From assembly GCF_042660085.1 (NCBI RefSeq), contig NZ_JBHSTI010000008.1, positions 2,325,604 through 2,357,603 of the forward strand: a stretch of 32,000 bases of DNA, in the 5' to 3' direction. Source of the DNA: Longivirga aurantiaca (GTDB lineage: Bacteria > Actinomycetota > Actinomycetes > S36-B12 > CAIYMF01). A model generated the notes under the pieces. That model was not told where the DNA came from, ran no database searches, and saw only the letters and a list, made by a program, of their open reading frames with translations. Position numbers and translations under genes: made by a program. Shown here in pieces: positions 2,217-24,033 of this stretch; position 1 is the first letter of the stretch, and the number at the start of each line of letters is the position of its first letter.

Positions 2217-3440
2217 GTGCGACGCACCTGGCTCACCCGCAACCTCGTGGTGCTGACCCTGGTGTCGCTCACCCAGGACGCCGCGAGCGAGCTGCTCTAC
2301 CCGCTGCTCCCCCTGCTCGTCACCGGCGTGCTCGCTGCTCCGCCCGTCGTCCTCGGCATCGTCGAGGGTGCGGCCGAGGCCGCCGCCGGCATCTCGAAGT
2401 ACGTCGCGGGGCGGTGGTCGGACGGCCGTCGGCGGCGCCCCTTCGTGACCACGGGCTACGCGCTCGCGGCGGCCGGCAAGATCCTGGTGGCCGCCGCGGC
2501 GGTCTGGCCGATGGTGCTCGTCGGGCGCGTGGTCGACCGGCTCGGCAAGGGCGTGCGATCGGCCCCGCGCGACGCGCTCATCGCGGCGTCGGTGCCGCGC
2601 GAGCACCTCGGCCGCGCGTTCGGCTTCCACCGCACCGGCGACACCCTGGGCGCGGTGATCGGTCCGCTCATCGCGCTCGCCGGCCTCACCCTGCTCGACG
2701 GCGACGTGCGCGCAGTGCTGTGGTGGGCCGTCGTGCCGGCCGTGCTCTCGGTGCTGCTCACCTTCCTGGTCCGCGAGAAGCGGCGTACGCCGGCACCCGA
2801 GGCCGAGGTCGAGGTCGAGGCCCAGGTCTCGGCGCCGAGCGAGCCGTCGCCGATCCCGCGCAGCCCGCTCCCCCGCAGCTTCTGGCGGGTGGTCGGGGTG
2901 CTCGTGGCGATCGCGGTGGTCAACTTCCCCGACGCCCTGCTGCTGCTGCGGATCTCCGACCTGGGCTACTCGACCACCGAGGTCGTGCTGGCCTATGTCG
3001 TCTTCAACGTCGTCTACACGCTCGGGTCGTACCCCGCGGGCGCGCTGTCGGACCGGCTTCCGCGACCGGTGGTGTACGGCGTCGGGCTGCTGGCCTTCGG
3101 CGTCGCCTACGGCGGCCTCGCCCTCGTCGAGCGCGGCCCGTGGGTGTGGGTGCTCATCTGCGTGTACGGACTCTTCCCCGCGCTGACCGACGGCGTGGGC
3201 AAGGCGTGGATCTCCACCCTCGTGGGCGACGAGCACCGCGGCCGCGCGCAGGGCGTGTTCCAGTCGCTGTCGAACGCGGCGGTGTTCCTCGCCGGCCTCT
3301 GGGCGGGGCTGCTCTGGGCGGTCGGGCCGGGCGACGGCGTGCTGCCGCTGCTCGTGTCGGGTGCGGTCGGCCTCGCGGCCGGCGCGGTGCTCGTGATCGG
3401 CCGCCATCGCGTCACCGGCGTACCGCAGCCGCTCGCCTAG
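2217..3440 (+). CDS. MFS transporter
   Basis: Distal part of ORF 1044..3440. The first plausible start is GTG 2217 (MRRTWLTRNLVVLTLVSL...). 12-TM-like hydrophobic profile and the MFS loop motif GRWSDGRRRRP. The start is inferred. Confidence 0.8.
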   Translation: MRRTWLTRNLVVLTLVSLTQDAASELLYPLLPLLVTGVLAAPPVVLGIVEGAAEAAAGISKYVAGRWSDGRRRRPFVTTGYALAAAGKILVAAAAVWPMVLVGRVVDRLGKGVRSAPRDALIAASVPREHLGRAFGFHRTGDTLGAVIGPLIALAGLTLLDGDVRAVLWWAVVPAVLSVLLTFLVREKRRTPAPEAEVEVEAQVSAPSEPSPIPRSPLPRSFWRVVGVLVAIAVVNFPDALLLLRISDLGYSTTEVVLAYVVFNVVYTLGSYPAGALSDRLPRPVVYGVGLLAFGVAYGGLALVERGPWVWVLICVYGLFPALTDGVGKAWISTLVGDEHRGRAQGVFQSLSNAAVFLAGLWAGLLWAVGPGDGVLPLLVSGAVGLAAGAVLVIGRHRVTGVPQPLA

Positions 3441-3452: not shown

Positions 3453-3537
3453 GCGGACGTGGTGGAATTGGCAGACACGCAGGATTTAGGTTCCTGTGCT
3501 CTCGAGCATGCGGGTTCGACCCCCGCCGTCCGCACCA
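3453..3537 (+). tRNA. tRNA-Leu (anticodon UAG), class II with long variable arm, encoded CCA
   Basis: Hand-folded. Acceptor GCGGACG/CGTCCGC, anticodon stem CAGGA/TCCTG with loop TTTAGGT, T arm GCGGG-TTCGACC-CCCGC, discriminator A plus CCA. Confidence 0.9.
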
Positions 3538-4233: not shown

Positions 4234-4955
4234 GACGCGAGCGCGGCCTTCTGCAGCTCGGTGAGGTCGGCGCAGCCCTGCGCTGCGAGCGCGAGCAGCT
4301 GGTCGAGCAGCGCGCGGTCGAACGGCTCGCCCTCCGCGGTCCCCTGCACCTCGACGTACCGTCCGTCGCCGGTCATCACCACGTTCATGTCGGTGTCCGC
4401 GGCGACGTCGTCGTCGTAGTGCAGGTCGAGGCGGGCCTCGCCGTCGACGATGCCCACCGACACCGCCGCGATCGAGTTGACGATGGGCTTCGCGGTGGCC
4501 TTCACGTGCCCCTGGCCGCGCGCCCACTCGATCGCGTCGACCAGGGCGACGTACGCGCCGGTGATGGCCGCGGTACGCGTGCCGCCGTCGGCCTGCAGCA
4601 CGTCGCAGTCGATCATGATCGAGTTCTCGCCGAGCGCCGACAGGTCGATCGCCGCGCGCAGCGACCGGCCGACGAGGCGCGAGATCTCGTGCGTGCGCCC
4701 GCCGACCTTGCCCCGCACCGACTCTCGGTCGTTACGCGTGTTGGTCGCGCGCGGGAGCATGGAGTACTCCCCCGTGATCCAGCCGAGGCCGGAGTCCTTG
4801 CGCCACCGCGGCACGCCCGCGGTGAAGGACGCGGCCACGAGCACACGGGTGCGCCCGAACGACACGAGGCACGAGCCCTCGGCGTGGTCGAGCCACCCGC
4901 GCTCGAACGAGACGGGACGGAGCTGGTCGGCGGCGCGGCCGTCGGAACGGGTCAT
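4230..4955 (-). CDS. rph: Ribonuclease PH
   Basis: 241-aa ORF with RNase PH hallmarks ([42 protein letters not shown]). Confidence 0.95.
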
Positions 4956-8554: not shown

Positions 8555-8971
8555 TCAGACGACGGTGACCGGTTCCTCGGTGACGACGCCGTCCACGATG
8601 CGGTACGACCGCAGCTCGTACGGCCCGTCCTCGCTGCCGGTCTCCCGCGTCGAGACCAGCACGTAGTGGGCCTCCGGCTCGGACGCGTAGCTGATGTCGG
8701 TGCGCGACGGGTAGGCCTCGGTCGCGGTGTGCGAGTGGTAGACGACCACCGGCACCTCGTCGTTGTCGTCCATGTCGCGGTAGAGCCGCAGCAGGTCGAG
8801 CGAGTCGAACTCGTAGAAGGTCGGAGACCGCGCGGCGTTGACCATCGGGATGAACCGCTCGGGGCGGTCGCTGCCGGCCGGGCCGGCGATCACCCCGCAC
8901 GCCTCGTCGGGGTGGTCCTGGCGCGCGTGGGCCACCATCGAGTCGACCAGGTCCTGTCGGATCGTGAGCAC
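8555..8971 (-). CDS. mec: JAMM/MPN+ metalloprotease Mec (CysO-cysteine peptidase)
   Basis: JAMM motif HSHTATEAYPSRTD (HxHx7Sx2D) and upstream Glu (PDEACG). GTG 8971 chosen (TACTCT box 6 nt upstream). The longer ORF extends to ATG 9040, so the start is uncertain. Confidence 0.85.
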   Translation of the reverse strand: MLTIRQDLVDSMVAHARQDHPDEACGVIAGPAGSDRPERFIPMVNAARSPTFYEFDSLDLLRLYRDMDDNDEVPVVVYHSHTATEAYPSRTDISYASEPEAHYVLVSTRETGSEDGPYELRSYRIVDGVVTEEPVTVV

Positions 8972-8977
8972 GCGCCC

Positions 8978-8983
8978 AGAGTA
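8978..8983 (-). promoter_or_regulatory. Candidate -10 box TACTCT, leaderless mec
   Basis: On the minus strand, TACTCT-GGGCGC-GTG(8971). Confidence 0.35.
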
Positions 8984-9164
8984 CGAGGCCTGCGTGCGGG
9001 GCCCGAGGTCGCGTGACGTGCGTCGCATAAACCGCGCCATAGGTTGTTCAACTTGCGCGGTGTGCGTCCCGGGACCACCCTGGGCGAGGCCGCGACCCAG
9101 TGCGCGGCTCCGCCGTTCCGGGAGACGACGGCATTCCTCGGCTCATGCCTGTGGAGGCTTGTCC

Positions 9165-9992
9165 ATGTCGTCCGCCGTAGAGACGCTCTCGAACGGACAG
9201 TTCCAGACCGTCTACAACGTCTTCTCCTTCGCCCTCGCGTCGATGCTCTTCACCGCGCTGTTCCTGCTGGTGTCCCAGGGCCGCGTGCTCCCCCGCTACC
9301 GCCAGGCGCTCGTGGTCTCCGCGACCGTCTGCGGCATCGCGGCCTACCACTACTTCCGCATCATCAACTCGTTCAACGAGGGCTTCGCCCCGACGGCGAT
9401 CGGCGGCGACTACACGCTGACGCCGTTCGGCTTCAACGAGGCCTACCGCTACGTCGACTGGCTCCTCACGGTGCCGCTCCTGCTGCTCGAGACCATCGCG
9501 GTCCTTGCGCTCCCCCGCGCCACCCGCGCGTCCCTGCTCACCAAGCTGATCCCGGCGTCGGTCCTGATGATCGCGCTCGGATACCCGGGCGAGGTCGCCA
9601 TCGACACCCTGCCCAAGATGCTGTGGGGCGCGGCCTCGACGATCCCGTTCCTCTACATCCTCTACGTGCTGTTCGTCGAGCTCACCAAGTCGCTCGGCCG
9701 TCAGCCCGCCGAGGTGGCTGCCAGCGTGAAGCGCCTGCGCATCCTGCTGATCGCCACCTGGGGCGTCTACCCGATCTCCTACCTGTTCCCGGTCTTCGGG
9801 CTCGACGGCGCGGACGCGTTCGTCCTGCGCCAGGTCGGCTACTCGGTGGCCGACGTCCTGGCCAAGTGCCTCTACGGCCTCGTGATCTACAAGATCGCGC
9901 GCATGAAGAGCGCAGCCGACGACCCGGTCTTCGCCGAGCAGGAGTTCGAGGAGGCGCCGTCGTCCGAGGCTCGGGCCACGGCTGCTGCCTGA
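9165..9992 (+). CDS. Microbial (type 1) rhodopsin, xanthorhodopsin/proteorhodopsin-like light-driven proton pump
   Basis: ORF 8838..9992 trimmed to the ATG at 9165 (GGAGG 7 nt upstream). Helix C RYVD98WLLT102VPLLLLE109 (DTE), His62 (AYHYF), WGVYPISY, helix G SVAD230VLAK234CLYGL, helix E LWGAASTIPFLYILYVLF. Confidence 0.9.
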   Translation: MSSAVETLSNGQFQTVYNVFSFALASMLFTALFLLVSQGRVLPRYRQALVVSATVCGIAAYHYFRIINSFNEGFAPTAIGGDYTLTPFGFNEAYRYVDWLLTVPLLLLETIAVLALPRATRASLLTKLIPASVLMIALGYPGEVAIDTLPKMLWGAASTIPFLYILYVLFVELTKSLGRQPAEVAASVKRLRILLIATWGVYPISYLFPVFGLDGADAFVLRQVGYSVADVLAKCLYGLVIYKIARMKSAADDPVFAEQEFEEAPSSEARATAAA

Positions 9993-10045
9993 CCGGCACG
10001 ACGCACCACTCTCCGCACCTGCGTCTCCCGGCACGGGTGCGGTCA

Positions 10046-10083
10046 GGGCGGGTCCGTCGGTCGACAGACCGACGGACCCGCCC
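10046..10083 (+). terminator. Perfect 17-bp stem / 4-nt loop hairpin between rhodopsin and blh
   Basis: GGGCGGGTCCGTCGGTC-GACA-GACCGACGGACCCGCCC, starting 54 nt after the rhodopsin stop and ending 48 nt before the blh start. No U-tract, as is common in high-GC actinobacteria. Confidence 0.55.
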
Positions 10084-10130
10084 ACCCCTCCTTCCACGCC
10101 GCACCGGCCATCCCGCAGCGAGGAGCAGCC

Positions 10131-11126
10131 ATGGCCACGGTCGTGACGACCCGCCCGCGGGAACTGGCCGCACCGCCCCTCGTCGCCGTCGTGCTCGCCG
10201 CCGGACCGGTGGCGGTCGCCCTCGCCGTGGCGTCCTCGGGCGCGTTCGCGAGCTCGGACCCCGCGGTCCCCGGCTGGGCGCCGGTCGTCGCCCTCGCGGC
10301 CCTCGTGGCCGGGGTGCCGCACGGCGCCGTCGACCACCTCGCCCTCGTCCGGTCGCCGTCAGGACGGCGGCGCCTCGAGCTGGCCGCCGTCTAACTCGCC
10401 CTCGCCGCGACGGCTGCGGCTGCCGTCGTCCTCGCCCCGGCGCCGGCGTTCATCGTCGTGCTGGCGATGTCGGTGTGGCACTTCGGCACGGGTGACGTCG
10501 CTCTCGCGGACGAGCTGGCGGGCTCGCCCCGGCGCGGCCGCGGGACGCGACTGGTCCACGTGCTCGCCGCCGGGTCGGTGCCGGTGCTGCTGCCGCTGAC
10601 CTCGCCCGCCGCGACCGCCACCCTGGTGGGGCTGGAGCCCCGGCTCTCGGCCGTCACGGCGCCGGGCCTGCTGCTCGGCGTACGCGTGGCCGTGCTCGTC
10701 CTGGCCGCCACCGCGGTCGCCGTACTGCTGCGGGGGCGCCGAGTCGCCCCGGCAGGCGAGGTAGCGCTGCTCGTGCTGCTGGCTCTCACCGTGACGCCGC
10801 TGCTCGCCTTCGCGGTCTACTTCTCGGCCTGGCACGCCGCCCGGCACACGCTGCGGCTGGCGCTGGACGACCGGTCGCGGATCGACAGGGTGCGCCTGCG
10901 CACCGTCCTCCGCGACGGCCTGCCATCGCTCGTGGGCACGCTGGCGGTGGTCGGGGCCGCGGTCGGCTCCGGGGCGACGACGTCCACCCGGGTCCTGTGG
11001 TTCGCGCTCGCCGCGGTCTGGGGGCTCACCGTGCCGCACATGGTGGTGGTCGGCGCCTTCGACCGGCGACGACGCAGCGCAGGCGTCAGTCCTGCTCGTC
11101 CCAGCCCGGCGGAGGCTCGGACGTGA
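10131..11126 (+). pseudogene. blh: Brp/Blh-family beta-carotene 15,15'-dioxygenase (retinal synthase) frame interrupted by an in-frame TAA at 10392..10394
   Basis: ORFs 10131..10394 and 10458..11126 are in the same frame. The first carries GVPHGAVDH. The second carries WHFGTGD, SAWHAARH (two His 4 apart) and VPHM. GAGGAG lies 5 nt upstream of ATG 10131. A single stop separates the first conserved His from the others. Confidence 0.7.
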
Positions 11127-11679
11127 GGCCCGTGACGGCCTGGACGAGCGTCTCCTGCAGGAACGTCAGCCAGTCGTAGACGTGCACGTGCACGAACCCG
11201 GGGTCGTCCTCGTCGAGGTCGTAGAAGCCCTCGTGGTTGTCCTCGGTGAGCCCGAGCCGTGCGCCGAGGGCGAGGCGCAGGTCGTTGAGCGCACCCATCC
11301 AGGACGCGATCTCGTCGTCCGGCACGACGACCTTGCGGTCGGCCTCGGCCAGAGCACGCAGCACCGTCGCGGCATGGTTCATCTTGGTCTCGCGCAGCGA
11401 CCGCTCGGTGAAGCGTCGGAACTCCGAGCTGGCCTCGTCGTCGTCGGCGTAGGCGTCGGGCAGAAGCCGCGCGAGGGCGGGGTCGTCGGGGCGCTCGGCG
11501 TCGGGGTCGATGCCGACCATCCGGGCGAGCGGGTCGGCGTCGGCGCCCCAGGGGTCGTCCTCGGGCGAGACGAGCTCGAGGACCTGGCTGACGAGCGTGG
11601 CCAGGAGCCCGCGCTCGACGTCGTCGACCTTCAGGACCAGCTTGCCCGTGGCAGTACGCCGGAAGCCGTGCACGGCCAC
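11086..11679 (-). CDS. DUF2017 domain protein (conserved ClpS neighbour in actinobacteria)
   Basis: 197-aa acidic ORF starting at a GTG 1 nt after the clpS stop. Family assignment is from memory of the clpS-adjacent conserved gene and its acidic sequence character. Confidence 0.75.
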   Translation of the reverse strand: MAVHGFRRTATGKLVLKVDDVERGLLATLVSQVLELVSPEDDPWGADADPLARMVGIDPDAERPDDPALARLLPDAYADDDEASSEFRRFTERSLRETKMNHAATVLRALAEADRKVVVPDDEIASWMGALNDLRLALGARLGLTEDNHEGFYDLDEDDPGFVHVHVYDWLTFLQETLVQAVTGLTSEPPPGWDEQD

Positions 11680-11680
11680 G

Positions 11681-12019
11681 TCAGTCGTCCTTCTGCAGGG
11701 TGGCCCAGAGCCCGTAGGAGTGCATCGCCGCGACGTCGATCTCCATCTCCTCGCGGGTGCCGTTCGAGACCACCGCGCGGCCCTCGTGGTGCACGTCCCA
11801 CATGAGCTTCTGCGCCTTCTCCTTGGAGTAGCCGAAGTACTCCATGAACACGTACGTCACGTACGACATGAGGTTGACCGGGTCGTTCCAGACGAGCGTG
11901 ATCCACGGCCGGTCCGGAGCGGTGATGCTCTCGGACTCCGGCCGATCGAGCTCGACCGGTGCGACTCCCACGGCGTCATCGTCGCACGGGCACGCGGCGG
12001 CGGGTGTGCGCGGCACCAC
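11681..12019 (-). CDS. clpS: ATP-dependent Clp protease adaptor ClpS
   Basis: Core [46 protein letters not shown]. Start uncertain: GTG 12019, GTG 12016 or GTG 11971. Confidence 0.85.
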
Positions 12020-12024
12020 GCGCG

Positions 12025-12030
12025 TACGCT
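12025..12030 (+). promoter_or_regulatory. Candidate -10 box TACGCT, leaderless aminotransferase gene
   Basis: TACGCT-CGCCCC-GTG(12037). Lies in the 17-bp gap between the divergent clpS and aminotransferase start codons. Confidence 0.4.
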
Positions 12031-12036
12031 CGCCCC

Positions 12037-13761
12037 GTGACCGGACAGCCGCTCCCCGTCCCCCCGCGGGACCCGTCCCTCCCCGAGCCGCCGCTCCTGG
12101 CGCGCATCCGCCAGGGCGTCATCGGCGACGACACCGTGATGCAGGGGCCGTTCGGTCCGCGCCGTGTCACGTACGCCGACTACACGGCGTCCGGCCGCGC
12201 CCTGGACTTCCTCGAGGACTTCATCCGCTGCGAGGTGCTCCCCCGCTACGCCAACACGCACACCGAGAGCAGCGGCACGGGTCTGCAGACCACCCGGCTG
12301 CGCGAGGACGCCCGCGCGATCGTGCACGACGCGCTCGGCTGCGGCGACGACGCCGTCGTCATCTTCACGGGCTCGGGCACGACCGGGGCGATCGACAAGC
12401 TGGTCGGCATCCTCAACCTGCGCATCCCCGCCGACCTCGACCGCGAGCACGGCTTCTCGGCGCAGATCCCGCGCGACGAGCGTCCGGTCGTGTTCATCGG
12501 CCCGTTCGAGCACCACAGCAACGAGCTCCCGTGGCGCGAGTCGATCGCCGACGTCGTCACGATCCCCGAGGACGCCGACGGCCACATCGACGTCGAGCGG
12601 CTGCGCGCCGAGCTCGCGGCGTACGCCGACCGCCCGCTGAAGATCGGCTCGTTCAGCGCGGCGTCGAACGTCACCGGGATCATGACCGACGTCGACGGCA
12701 TCGCCCGACTGCTGCACGAGCACGGGGCGCTGTCGTTCTGGGACTACGCCGCCGCCGGGCCGTACCTCGACATCGACATGCAGGGCGACCACGTCGACCC
12801 GCTCACGCGCAAGGACGCCATCGTCCTGTCGCCGCACAAGTTCGTGGGCGGCCCCGGCACCCCCGGTGTCCTCGCGATCCGGCGCGACCTGCTCACCAAC
12901 TCGGTCCCCGTAGTCGTCGGCGGCGGCACCGTGGCGTACGTGAACCCGGCCGAGCACGTGTACCTGGCGGACGCCGTGCACCGGGAGGAGGCCGGAACGC
13001 CGGCGATCGTCGAGTCGATCCGTGCCGGCCTGGTCTTCGACCTCAAGCGCAACGTGGGCACCGACATCATCCGGGCGCACGAGGACGACTTCCTGCGCCG
13101 CGCCGTGGCCGCATGGAGCGCGCACCCGACCATCGACATCCTCGGCAACCTCGACGCAGAGCGGCTCTCGATCGTGTCGTTCACCGTGCGCCGCCCCGGC
13201 GGCCGCTACCTCCACCACAACTTCGTCGTGGCGCTGCTCAACGACCTGTTCGGCATCCAGAGCCGCGGCGGCTGCTCGTGCGCCGGGCCGTACGGCCACC
13301 GGCTGCTCGGGATCGACCTCGAGAAGAGCCACGAGTTCGAGCGCGAGATCACCCACGGGTGCGAGGGCATCAAGCCCGGCTGGGTGCGGGTGAACTTCAA
13401 CTACTTCGTGAGCGACGAGGTGTTCCAGTACGTCGTGCAGGCGGTCGCGATGGTGGCCGACCACGGCTGGAAGCTCGTGCCGCAGTACCGCTTCGACGTC
13501 GCGTCCGGTCGCTGGCGGCACAAGGACGGCACCGTCGAGCCGCCGTTGCGCCTCTCGCAGCTCGCCTACGTCGACGGCGAGCTGACCTACCCGCGGCACG
13601 ACGACCGCGCTCCCGAGTCGGACCTGCGCCGCTACCTCGCCGAGGCGCACGACCTCATGGAGTCGCTTCCCGAGCCGGGCGAGGACGTCGACGTCACGCG
13701 CGTGAGCCCGGACTTCGAGCACCTCCGCTGGTTCGAGCTCCCCGCCGAGTGCCTCACCTGA
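12037..13761 (+). CDS. Aminotransferase class V-fold PLP-dependent enzyme (cysteine desulfurase-like, long form)
   Basis: ORF 11959..13761 trimmed to GTG 12037. [14 protein letters not shown]-lysine context [12 protein letters not shown]-terminal [13 protein letters not shown]. About 574 aa. Confidence 0.8.
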
Positions 13762-21707: not shown

Positions 21708-23072
21708 GTGACCCGTCGACTCGTCGCCCCGGTCGCGGTGAGCGCTGCGGCACTCGCGGCCCTCCTCCTCGGAGCGCTCCCCGCCAACGCCGAGGTGCCG
21801 CCGGACTCCGGCGCCACGACCCCCCCGACGTCGTCGGTGCCGCTCGACGGGTACGACGCCTACGTCGCGGCGCAGACCCGCATGGCCGCCCTGCTCCCGG
21901 CCAGGGTCGCGGCGGCGCGGGCGCTCGGGCCCGCTCCCGGCATCCTCGTGAGCGACGCCGGCACCGGAGAGGTCGCGTACGCCGCGCACTCCACCACCCC
22001 GATGCGCGGCGCCTCCACCACCAAGCTGCTGACCGCCGTCACCTCGCTCGCGACCCTCGGCACGACCACCCGCTTCCCCACGACCGTGCTCGACGGACGA
22101 CGCGCCACCGAGGTCGTGCTGCAGGGCGGCGGCGACCCGATGCTCACCAGCGCGCAGGTGTCCGCCCTCGCCCGCAGCACGGCGAGGGCACTGGTGCCGC
22201 GCGCGCCGGCGGCCGGCTCGGCGACGACGTTCCGGGTCACGGTCAAGGTCGACGACACGCTCTACCCCGTGCCCACCCCCGCGGTCGGCTGGCCCTCGCA
22301 CTACCTCCCGTACGTCGTCGCCCCGGTGCGGCCGCTGATCCGCGACCTGCGCAACAGCTGGGACTCGGCCAAGGACGTCGGCACGTACTTCGCCGCGCGG
22401 CTCGCGGTGGAGCTGAAGGCCGCGCTGGCCGCGCGCCCCGATCTCGCCGTGTCGGCGGCGTACTCGGGGAAGATGGCGGCGGCCGACGGCGCGCCCGTGA
22501 TCGCCCGGTTCGCCGGCAACACCAGCGCCTCCGCGCTGAGGCTCATGCTGCTCGTGTCCGACAACGACGTCGCCGAGATGATGCTGCGCAACAGCGCCGT
22601 GGCGGCGACCGGAGCCGGCTCGTGGACGGCGGCCCGCTCGACCGCGCGCTCGACGCTGAACGGTCTCGGGATCGACACCACCGGCTGGGTGTTCGACGAC
22701 GGCAGCGGGGTCTCCCGCACCGACCGGCTCACCGCGCGCGGCCTCGTGCAGCTGCTGCGGGTGGCGCAGTCCCCCGTGCACCCCGAGCTCGCCCCGCTGC
22801 GGGGCTGGCTGCCCGTCGGCGGCGTCAGCGGCACGCTCAAGGCGGCGAACGGCCGCTTCACGACGTCGCCGACGAGCTGCGCGCGCGGCGACGTGTTCGC
22901 CAAGACGGGGACGCTGTTCGACACGATCGGCCTCGCCGGCTACGCGCGGGGCAGCGACGGCAGGTTGAAGACGTTCGCCGTGCTGGTGCACCGTTCCGGG
23001 GAGACGTATCCCAAGCTCACCGTGCGGCAGAGCGTCGACCGCGTCGCGGCGACCGCGACCGGCTGCTACTGA
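21708..23072 (+). CDS. dacB: D-alanyl-D-alanine carboxypeptidase/endopeptidase, PBP4 (peptidase S13) family
   Basis: ORF 21633..23072 trimmed to GTG 21708 (GAGGAG 8 nt upstream, then a signal peptide ...LPANA). Motifs STTK, SDN, KTG. Confidence 0.85.
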   Translation: MTRRLVAPVAVSAAALAALLLGALPANAEVPPDSGATTPPTSSVPLDGYDAYVAAQTRMAALLPARVAAARALGPAPGILVSDAGTGEVAYAAHSTTPMRGASTTKLLTAVTSLATLGTTTRFPTTVLDGRRATEVVLQGGGDPMLTSAQVSALARSTARALVPRAPAAGSATTFRVTVKVDDTLYPVPTPAVGWPSHYLPYVVAPVRPLIRDLRNSWDSAKDVGTYFAARLAVELKAALAARPDLAVSAAYSGKMAAADGAPVIARFAGNTSASALRLMLLVSDNDVAEMMLRNSAVAATGAGSWTAARSTARSTLNGLGIDTTGWVFDDGSGVSRTDRLTARGLVQLLRVAQSPVHPELAPLRGWLPVGGVSGTLKAANGRFTTSPTSCARGDVFAKTGTLFDTIGLAGYARGSDGRLKTFAVLVHRSGETYPKLTVRQSVDRVAATATGCY

Positions 23073-23129: not shown

Positions 23130-23786
23130 TCAGCGCAGCGCGCGCGCGACCTCGCCGGCGGCGCGCAGCACCTTGGGGCCGACGTCGTCGAGCACGAGGT
23201 CTCCGAGCGCGAGCACGCCGACCGACGCCTCGATGCCGGCGACGCCGAGCAGCGGGGCCGCCACACCGACGGCGCCCGGCTGGAGCTCGCCGGTGGACAC
23301 GACCCAGCCGGGCTCGAACGGGCGACCACCGGTCGCCCGTGCGGCGAGCACGGCCTTCCCGCCGGCACCGCGGTCGAGCGCATGGCGCGCACCGACGCGG
23401 TAGGCGACGTGGAAGTCCGAGCGGGTGGGCTCCACGACCGCCACGGCGAGCGCGTCGGACCCGTCGACCACCGTGAGGTGCGCGGTGGCACCCACGGAGT
23501 CCGACAGCCGGCGCAGCGCCGGGAGGGCGGCCTCCCGCAGGACGGGCTGCACCTGCCGCGCGAGCGCCAGCACGGCCATGCCGAGCCGGCAGCGGCCGTC
23601 GGTGCCGCGCCGCAGCAGCGCGTGCTGCTCGAGCGTGACCACCAGGCGGTAGACGACGGTGCGCGAGACGCCGAGCCGTGCGGCGATCTCGGTGACGGTG
23701 AGGCCGTCCGACGCGTCGGACAGCAGTTCCAGGACTGACAGCCCTCGATCGAGGGTCTGGCTGGTCTCTGCGACCACGCGATCCAC
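23130..23786 (-). CDS. IclR-family transcriptional regulator
   Basis: ORF 23130..24005 trimmed to GTG 23786 (GAGGGA Shine-Dalgarno); alternative GTG 23777. N-terminal SQTLDRGLSVLELL...GLTVTEIAARLGVSRTVVYRLV, then an IclR effector domain. Confidence 0.8.
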   Translation of the reverse strand: MDRVVAETSQTLDRGLSVLELLSDASDGLTVTEIAARLGVSRTVVYRLVVTLEQHALLRRGTDGRCRLGMAVLALARQVQPVLREAALPALRRLSDSVGATAHLTVVDGSDALAVAVVEPTRSDFHVAYRVGARHALDRGAGGKAVLAARATGGRPFEPGWVVSTGELQPGAVGVAAPLLGVAGIEASVGVLALGDLVLDDVGPKVLRAAGEVARALR

Positions 23787-24000
23787 CTCGGTCCCTCTGC
23801 TCGTGGTCCCTCGTGAGGACCCGTGTGCTCGGTGCCGGAAGGCGCGTGGCGCACCCTCCTCGGCAGTCCGGCCGGGCGACCGGTCTGTTGACCACTCTGC
23901 CCCAGGTCGGGCCGGTTCGGTCAATTCCCGGCGTCCGATCTGCGACTCCTGCCACAACGAGGAGCGGTCGTGCGGGAGTTCCGCGGCGCACGTGGCGAAC

Positions 24001-24033
24001 CTCACGGACCCCGGCGTGGCGGGGGTCCGTGAG
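24001..24033 (-). terminator. Hairpin downstream of hdeD
   Basis: CTCACGGACCCC-(9 nt)-GGGGTCCGTGAG, a 12-bp perfect stem 39 nt past the hdeD stop. Confidence 0.5.

Follow-up and report, generated by a model that had tools for sequence, protein, structure and literature searches.

A probable recent nonsense mutation in blh beside an intact rhodopsin gene in Longivirga aurantiaca

Rhodopsin-bearing bacteria without blh, the gene for the beta-carotene 15,15'-dioxygenase of the Brp/Blh family, have already been described. Two Actinobacteria are examples: the pump of Rhodoluna lacicola works only when retinal is supplied, and Aurantimicrobium minutum KNC produces retinal even though it has no blh (PMC7734400). 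For Saccharibacteria, members of the candidate phyla radiation (CPR), it has been proposed that their type-1 rhodopsins depend on the retinal of other organisms (PMC9296517). Here we analyze a 32-kb stretch of DNA from an orange lake bacterium, Longivirga aurantiaca (Sporichthyaceae, Actinomycetota), referred to as the window, in which an intact rhodopsin gene is followed directly by a blh gene interrupted by one in-frame stop codon. The locus is a new example of the blh-less category. We estimate a probability of roughly 0.8 that it carries a genuine, very recent loss-of-function allele of blh (Tyr88 to stop) beside the intact rhodopsin gene.

The resemblance to Rhodoluna and Aurantimicrobium lies in an intact rhodopsin of the proton-pump type without a functional blh at the locus, which raises the same question about the source of the chromophore. 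Unlike them, Longivirga belongs to the order Sporichthyales and has a high-GC, non-streamlined genome. What also sets Longivirga apart from both is that one genus holds three states of blh: a nonsense allele, an intact allele (in a relative 99.3% identical) and a deletion. The likeness to Saccharibacteria is that a pump is kept without a retinal-synthesis gene, implying chromophore scavenging (PMC9296517). However, Saccharibacteria are episymbionts without any carotenoid pathway, whereas Longivirga is a free-living cultured actinobacterium with relatives that still have blh.

For the enzyme itself, comparison can be made with Blh of the uncultured marine bacterium 66A03 (Q4PNI0). The iron ligands proposed for Blh are His21, His78, His188 and His192, and an AlphaFold-based re-analysis proposes that His256 replaces His192; the same work reports nine helices for Q4PNI0 (bioRxiv 10.64898/2026.08.06.743266). 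The Longivirga protein is likewise predicted to have a multi-helix membrane fold, and, like known Brp/Blh proteins, it matches the family profile over its full length and is encoded next to a rhodopsin gene. Both proteins have five of the histidines in question, spaced 57/110/4/64 in Q4PNI0 and 53/118/4/64 in Longivirga. The differences are that the Longivirga N-terminus is about 40 residues longer and that its reading frame is broken at Tyr88, with no full-length enzyme predicted.

The interrupted gene occupies 10131 to 11126 on the + strand. Its ATG at 10131, the TAA at 10392 to 10394 and the final TGA at 11124 to 11126 all share one frame (10392 minus 10131 is divisible by 3), as do the two listed open reading frames (ORFs), 10131 to 10394 and 10458 to 11126. 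The TAA, in the context GTC TAA CTC GCC, is codon 88 of 331. The 5' fragment (10131 to 10394) consists of 87 codons plus the TAA; it encodes predicted helices 1 and 2, the start of helix 3, and the motif GVPHGAVDH (residues 61 to 69), within which lies His64 (10320 to 10322). The 3' remainder (10395 to 11126) consists of 243 codons plus TGA, with a clean, open frame and a GC content at third codon positions (GC3) of 0.91. It encodes the motifs WHFG (His117, 10479 to 10481), AWHAARH (His235, 10833 to 10835, and His239, 10845 to 10847) and VPHM (His303, 11037 to 11039). A preliminary description of this DNA had given these coordinates, the shared frame, the single TAA between the two ORFs and the motifs on either side of it, and direct reading bears out all of this. 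It had also held that the stop separates the first conserved histidine from the others. This separation stands, with His64 on the 5' fragment, but the number of conserved histidines is five rather than the four that had been supposed, and four of these five lie beyond the stop.

Profile searches show that both pieces belong to a single gene for a Brp/Blh beta-carotene 15,15'-dioxygenase. Pfam PF15461 (BCD) matched the joined translation in one stretch that spans the stop (residues 56 to 311, profile positions 2 to 267 of 267, 126.8 bits against a cut-off of 28). When the tyrosine was restored, the protein scored 144.2 bits with the NCBIfam hidden Markov model TIGR03753 (blh_monoox, Brp/Blh; cut-off 95.25) over profile positions 2 to 259 of 260; the 87-residue piece alone scored 20.3 bits, and the 3' remainder matched positions 64 to 259. 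The curated cut-offs of both profiles were thus passed over the full length, and all of the proposed Fe(II)-binding histidines are encoded. What is missing is a single uninterrupted ORF of about 300 to 340 codons that encodes all of the helices. Because the TAA falls at codon 88 and the homologues are all single ORFs, the locus is best described as a blh pseudogene or disrupted allele and not as a predicted functional member of the family.

A homology search with the blh protein returned 213 matches; the homologues among the 120 matches listed are single proteins of 244 to 397 amino acids, all with PF15461. Two alignments were made, one of 25 homologues with the window protein (26 sequences) and one of 116 homologues. 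At the position of the stop, all 116 of these and every homologue of the smaller alignment have tyrosine, and the only invariant histidines among the 116 are His64, His117, His235, His239 and His303. The window protein keeps all 51 of the columns that are invariant across the 26 aligned sequences. Tyrosine is encoded by TAC 197 times and by TAT 4 times in the genes of the window, and the nearest relative and five other relatives have TAC at codon 88. Because the tyrosine is invariant and the relatives have TAC, the event is a single C-to-A change at 10394. The preliminary description had noted that the TAA is one substitution away from a tyrosine codon and had proposed a family alignment as the means of finding the expected residue, and the alignment gave that answer. 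The condition that it named as refuting its view, that the two pieces are separate genes in the family, does not hold, as every aligned homologue (116) is a single ORF.

The interruption is no product of chance, and the TAA is also unusual for its surroundings. TAA occurs in only 6 places on the + strand of the 32 kb and ends none of the 24 scored genes (23 TGA, 1 TAG). The GC content of the window is about 72%, with 77.5% over positions 10001 to 11000 versus 67.8% over 9001 to 10000. A mechanical search for in-frame stops with coding-type GC3 (above 0.85) on both flanks found this TAA and one other stop, a TGA at 23070 to 23072. The latter is taken to be the normal end of an S13-peptidase gene, with the downstream GC3 signal presumably coming from a gene on the opposite strand (23130 to 24005).

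The predicted consequences for the enzyme are severe. In an AlphaFold2 model of a collinear homologue that is 68% identical (P0001; 116 sequences, mean pLDDT 88.7), helices were found at residues 15 to 40, 50 to 71 (with His64), 78 to 101 (with Tyr88) and 103 to 130 (with His117), with more helices after these. Tyr88 lies within the helix at 78 to 101, and the stop therefore truncates the protein inside helix 3. On this model the stub would consist of two helices and a small part of a third and would carry one of the five invariant histidines. The stub is probably translated, as a Shine-Dalgarno-like GAGGAG (10120 to 10125, + strand) lies 5 nt before the ATG; the N-terminal sequence MATVVTTRPRE also lines up with the N-termini of the homologues. 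The prospects for restarting translation are different. As read from the sequence, no ATG, GTG or TTG lies between the TAA and a GTG at 10458, 64 nt downstream. The first in-frame starts after the stop are this GTG (V110) and an ATG at 10467 (M113), neither with a Shine-Dalgarno sequence, and a product restarted at either would be without helices 1 to 3, His64 and Tyr88. Judged by their spacing and invariance, His64, His117, His235, His239 and His303 would correspond to His21, His78, His188, His192 and His256 of Q4PNI0. Under either of the ligand models the first iron ligand would be encoded on the stub and the others downstream of the stop.

The closest relative suggests that the mutation, if real, is young. 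The cluster of the 87-residue stub has one further member, a 331-residue protein from the Logan assembly of sequencing run SRR22388094. The 2,229-bp metagenome contig in question (L016) is 99.3% identical in nucleotide sequence to window positions 10070 to 12299 and has TAC at codon 88; so do five more distant loci (L018 to L022). Apart from the nonsense change, blh of the window differs from that of L016 by 6 synonymous and 2 nonsynonymous changes (L180P and T194A), a ratio of nonsynonymous to synonymous rates (omega) of about 0.15; across the clade omega for blh is about 0.33. In these comparisons there is no sign of decay after the stop, which indicates that the change, unless it is an artifact, must be very recent. 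A literature search on run SRR22388094, which would bear on the habitat of this relative, found nothing. A protein scan of genome contigs gave, among the matches listed, only distant relatives (at most 49% identity), and when JGI metagenome contigs were scanned for exact matches to each allele around codon 88 there were 0, which leaves the TAA allele without environmental evidence for or against it.

Further evidence comes from a sister clade that has lost blh altogether. Five loci (L023 to L027) were found via their rhodopsins, which have identities of 90% or more; their sources are several metagenomes, one of them from wastewater, and an NCBI metagenome-assembled genome (GCA_964269125.1). 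They are 94% identical to the window in nucleotide sequence, and in them the rhodopsin gene is followed directly by the DUF2017 gene, an arrangement shared by one more locus (L028). The lost segment, at 10090 to 11081 of the + strand, is essentially the whole of blh: blastn homology ends at 10089 and resumes at 11082, or, in L028, ends at 10086 and resumes at 11086. The left edge lies just past the hairpin between the two genes, and the right edge does not reach the stop codon of DUF2017, from which it is 4 nt away. In place of the lost segment is a scar of some 68 bp (for example, positions 4926 to 4993 of L024), with a stretch resembling a ribosome-binding site and the sequence CCATGAC, which is the blh start as found in L018 and L022. 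Because the scar retains this remnant, blh was deleted in these lineages rather than ancestrally absent. In a neighbor-joining tree of 5.6 kb of flanking DNA, L024, L025 and L028 form one clade. The window is its sister, and L018 and L022 branch outside this group. This topology therefore points to one deletion of blh in the sister clade and an independent nonsense change in the lineage of the type strain.

The rhodopsin genes of the same lineages have been retained with little change in protein sequence. Between the window and L024 there are 34 synonymous and 2 nonsynonymous changes (omega 0.019), and between L024 and L028, both of which lack blh, there are 53 and 1 (omega 0.006). The DVLAK motif and the residues D-T-E are intact in all of the rhodopsins compared (window, L024 and L028). 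These ratios indicate that the rhodopsin of the sister clade is under very strong purifying selection. With blh deleted and rhodopsin conserved, blh therefore appears to be dispensable in the sister clade and the pump does not. That lineages without blh keep the opsin implies a supply of retinal that does not need this blh, whether retinal is taken up from the surroundings, formed by another enzyme or made through a blh copy at some other site. Relocation of blh in the sister clade was considered and rejected on locus-level evidence: the other blh-bearing lineages examined keep blh directly downstream of the rhodopsin gene, and one of them (L032) retains the order rhodopsin, blh, DUF2017.

The rhodopsin gene of the window (9165 to 9992, + strand) is intact and lies directly upstream of blh. 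It encodes 275 amino acids, matches PF01036 with 128.5 bits and corresponds exactly to the protein MFC6239211.1, annotated as "bacteriorhodopsin-like [Longivirga aurantiaca]." The translation has the motif DWLLTVPLLLLE (D-T-E) and the retinal-binding lysine in DVLAK. We presume, from established knowledge of proteorhodopsins rather than from an alignment, that the D-T-E residues serve as acceptor and donor and that the lysine of DVLAK forms the Schiff base. The PF01036 match, the helix-C D-T-E motif and the Schiff-base lysine place the protein with the proton-pumping microbial rhodopsins (the proteorhodopsin, xanthorhodopsin-like and actinorhodopsin group). Omega for the gene against its relatives is 0.02 to 0.11. 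A search for literature on Longivirga rhodopsin or retinal found nothing.

Two stem-loops lie between the rhodopsin gene and blh (10013 to 10083, + strand), one at 10013 to 10042 and the other a perfect 17-bp stem at 10046 to 10083. Their minimum free energy is -80.5 kcal/mol (z = -5.3), and 0 of 200 shuffled sequences were equally stable. They are kept in L018 (about 9895 to 9965), L022 and L024 (4850 to 4925), with compensatory pairs of changes, for example GGGTCC/GGACCC to GGGCCC/GGGCCC. Because they are retained where blh has been deleted, they belong to the 3' end of the rhodopsin transcript. They are probably a terminator, an attenuator or an mRNA-stabilizing element that uncouples the expression of blh from that of rhodopsin. 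The stem-loops have no T-tract and match no Rfam family; a scan of positions 8900 to 11300 for consensus promoters and terminators found nothing, and a hairpin without a T-tract goes unflagged in such a scan.

In the sequence of events that we propose, a two-gene rhodopsin-blh cassette would have been hit in the sequenced strain by a change from TAC to TAA, and translation from the well-placed Shine-Dalgarno sequence and ATG would stop after 87 residues. With one conserved histidine on the stub and no ribosome-binding site at V110 or M113, the locus would therefore be expected to yield no active beta-carotene 15,15'-dioxygenase. The strain would make opsin and would obtain retinal from outside or by a route independent of blh, or its pump would be uncharged in pure culture. 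This corresponds to the first of three readings put forward in the preliminary description, an intact pump with a dead retinal gene, and it is the one we favor because the sister clade has deleted blh and its rhodopsin is under strong purifying selection. Over 21 kb, about 25 syntenic genes align with their relatives at full length in single segments, and no gene of the window other than blh was found to be interrupted. That the change is a substitution and not an indel, that the neighboring genes are intact and that blh is dispensable in the sister clade together make a real mutation likely.

Several points weigh against this conclusion. The NCBI record is the sole place where the 87-residue product occurs, and the reads of the strain are seemingly not among the Logan assemblies, which leaves room for a consensus error. 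The nearest relative has TAC, and the lack of further decay in blh is also what would be expected from a sequencing error. What lies outside the 32 kb (a second Brp/Blh, a carotenoid cleavage oxygenase from a different family, or a lack of the carotenoid biosynthesis genes, crt) could change the physiological reading; within the window there are no crt genes. In addition, low-level misreading of UAA by near-cognate tRNAs could yield traces of wild-type enzyme.

The most serious rival explanation, proposed as the second reading of the preliminary description, is that the A at 10394 is an error of sequencing, consensus or assembly, or else a minority variant in the culture, with the real allele having TAC and blh working. 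Consistent with this, blh is otherwise perfect, with all invariant residues kept, a clean frame, coding-type GC3 and differences from the nearest relative of the purifying type, and the collections searched hold no independent data for the strain. However, an error would have to be a substitution and not an indel in a homopolymer, and the roughly 25 neighboring genes are free of frameshifts and stops relative to their relatives, so the assembly does not appear to be error-prone here. Consensus substitution errors that create a stop should number well under one per polished bacterial genome, whereas genuine nonsense pseudogenes number in the tens. The dispensability of blh in the sister clade further makes a real loss plausible. 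An error is thus unlikely.

Far less probable is the third reading of the preliminary description, in which the stop is leaky: a near-cognate tRNA-Tyr or a suppressor tRNA would read the UAA (followed by C), and retinal synthesis would be reduced rather than abolished. Insertion of tyrosine at the UAA would restore the exact wild-type protein, little enzyme may suffice, and a frame that stays open after the stop would fit a gene still in use. Yet the intact frame is equally well explained by recency, and of the three stops it is UAA at which bacteria terminate most efficiently. Programmed read-through or recoding would be expected to leave a conserved stop, and the stop is in no relative examined: all have TAC, and the column is tyrosine throughout. 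Neither an RNA structure nor a suppressor tRNA was found in the window; the 101 nt from 10380 to 10480 fold no better than shuffled sequences (z = -0.02), the only tRNA in the window is a tRNA-Leu, and a search of the window found no Rfam element. The case for read-through is therefore unsupported. A split enzyme, in which the 87-residue N-terminal fragment and a re-initiated C-terminal fragment assemble in the membrane, is hardly credible even though both pieces are open frames of coding-type composition, as none of the 116 aligned homologues is split, no start codon or Shine-Dalgarno sequence lies between the stop and 10458, and neither fragment would therefore contain residues 88 to 109, which include the invariant Tyr88 and Pro103 and the greater part of helix 3; a naturally split two-gene enzyme was rejected on the same grounds.

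The surrounding genes are, in order, RNase PH, a metallo-beta-lactamase-fold protein, a racemase, a hypothetical protein, a CysM-like PALP protein, a ThiS-like protein, JAB, rhodopsin (+), blh (+), DUF2017 (-), ClpS (-), a class-V aminotransferase, GH18 and more genes. The DUF2017 gene (11086 to 11679, - strand) is convergent with blh; its product matches PF09438 with 195.9 bits and is identical to MFC6239213.1. The 3' ends of blh and the DUF2017 gene overlap by 41 nt (11086 to 11126), as they do in L018 to L022. A gene for an MFS transporter (2217 to 3437) and a Ham1-like gene flank the tRNA-Leu gene (anticodon TAG; 3453 to 3537); no other RNA gene was detected in the window. The same gene order is found in L018 to L022, which are 82 to 85% identical to the window in nucleotide sequence, and in L032, all with an intact blh of 331 to 332 amino acids. 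Relative to L018, blh of the window has 68% amino acid identity, whereas 11 flanking genes have 85 to 97% and rhodopsin has 96%, and the synonymous divergence (dS) is 0.70 for blh versus 0.27 for rhodopsin; this fast divergence could be due to weak constraint, to differences in codon usage or to recombination. In L022 (233 to 1949 and 8410 to 8517) and L028, contigs from the European Nucleotide Archive (ENA) samples ERZ25039499 and ERZ25039524, several genes are split or shortened relative to the window, such as a Pyr_redox-rhodanese gene in two pieces and a JAB gene of 35 amino acids, and L028 has 38 gap openings in 3.9 kb. These breaks look like indel errors of long-read assembly, and the window has none. 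A single-base indel also separates L016 from the window at position 12016, which is codon 2 of ClpS in the alignment with its relatives. ClpS is called at 96 amino acids in L016 versus 112 to 113 elsewhere, which could reflect a different start site or an error in the L016 contig.

The current annotation obscures the state of the gene. NCBI records the 87-residue stub as "hypothetical protein" (MFC6239212.1 / WP_386768085.1) and UniRef as "Beta-carotene 15,15'-dioxygenase" (UniRef100_A0ABW1T5Q9). The downstream piece has no protein record in the public protein collection searched. Because the stub is filed as an ordinary protein and the 3' piece has no record, the disruption is invisible to surveys at the protein level. 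Genome surveys could score the strain as having blh or as lacking it, each for the wrong reason.

Taken alone, the interrupted gene would be one more pseudogene, and the finding would gain weight only if retinal were shown to be formed in the strain in spite of the broken blh. That the pump is under selection in the genus and blh is not implies a dependable source of retinal other than blh. It is possible, although rather improbable, that the rhodopsins of Longivirga are charged with retinal from an endogenous route independent of blh, as has been postulated for A. minutum. Such a route would explain two losses of blh in a genus in which omega for the pump is about 0.01 to 0.02. The availability of a cultured type strain opens the source of retinal in rhodopsin-bearing bacteria without blh to experiment, and, if the endogenous route is real, the genus would supply intact, nonsense and deleted forms of blh in genomes that otherwise hardly differ, a natural series with which the retinal-forming enzyme could be sought by comparative genomics and then examined in a cultured strain.

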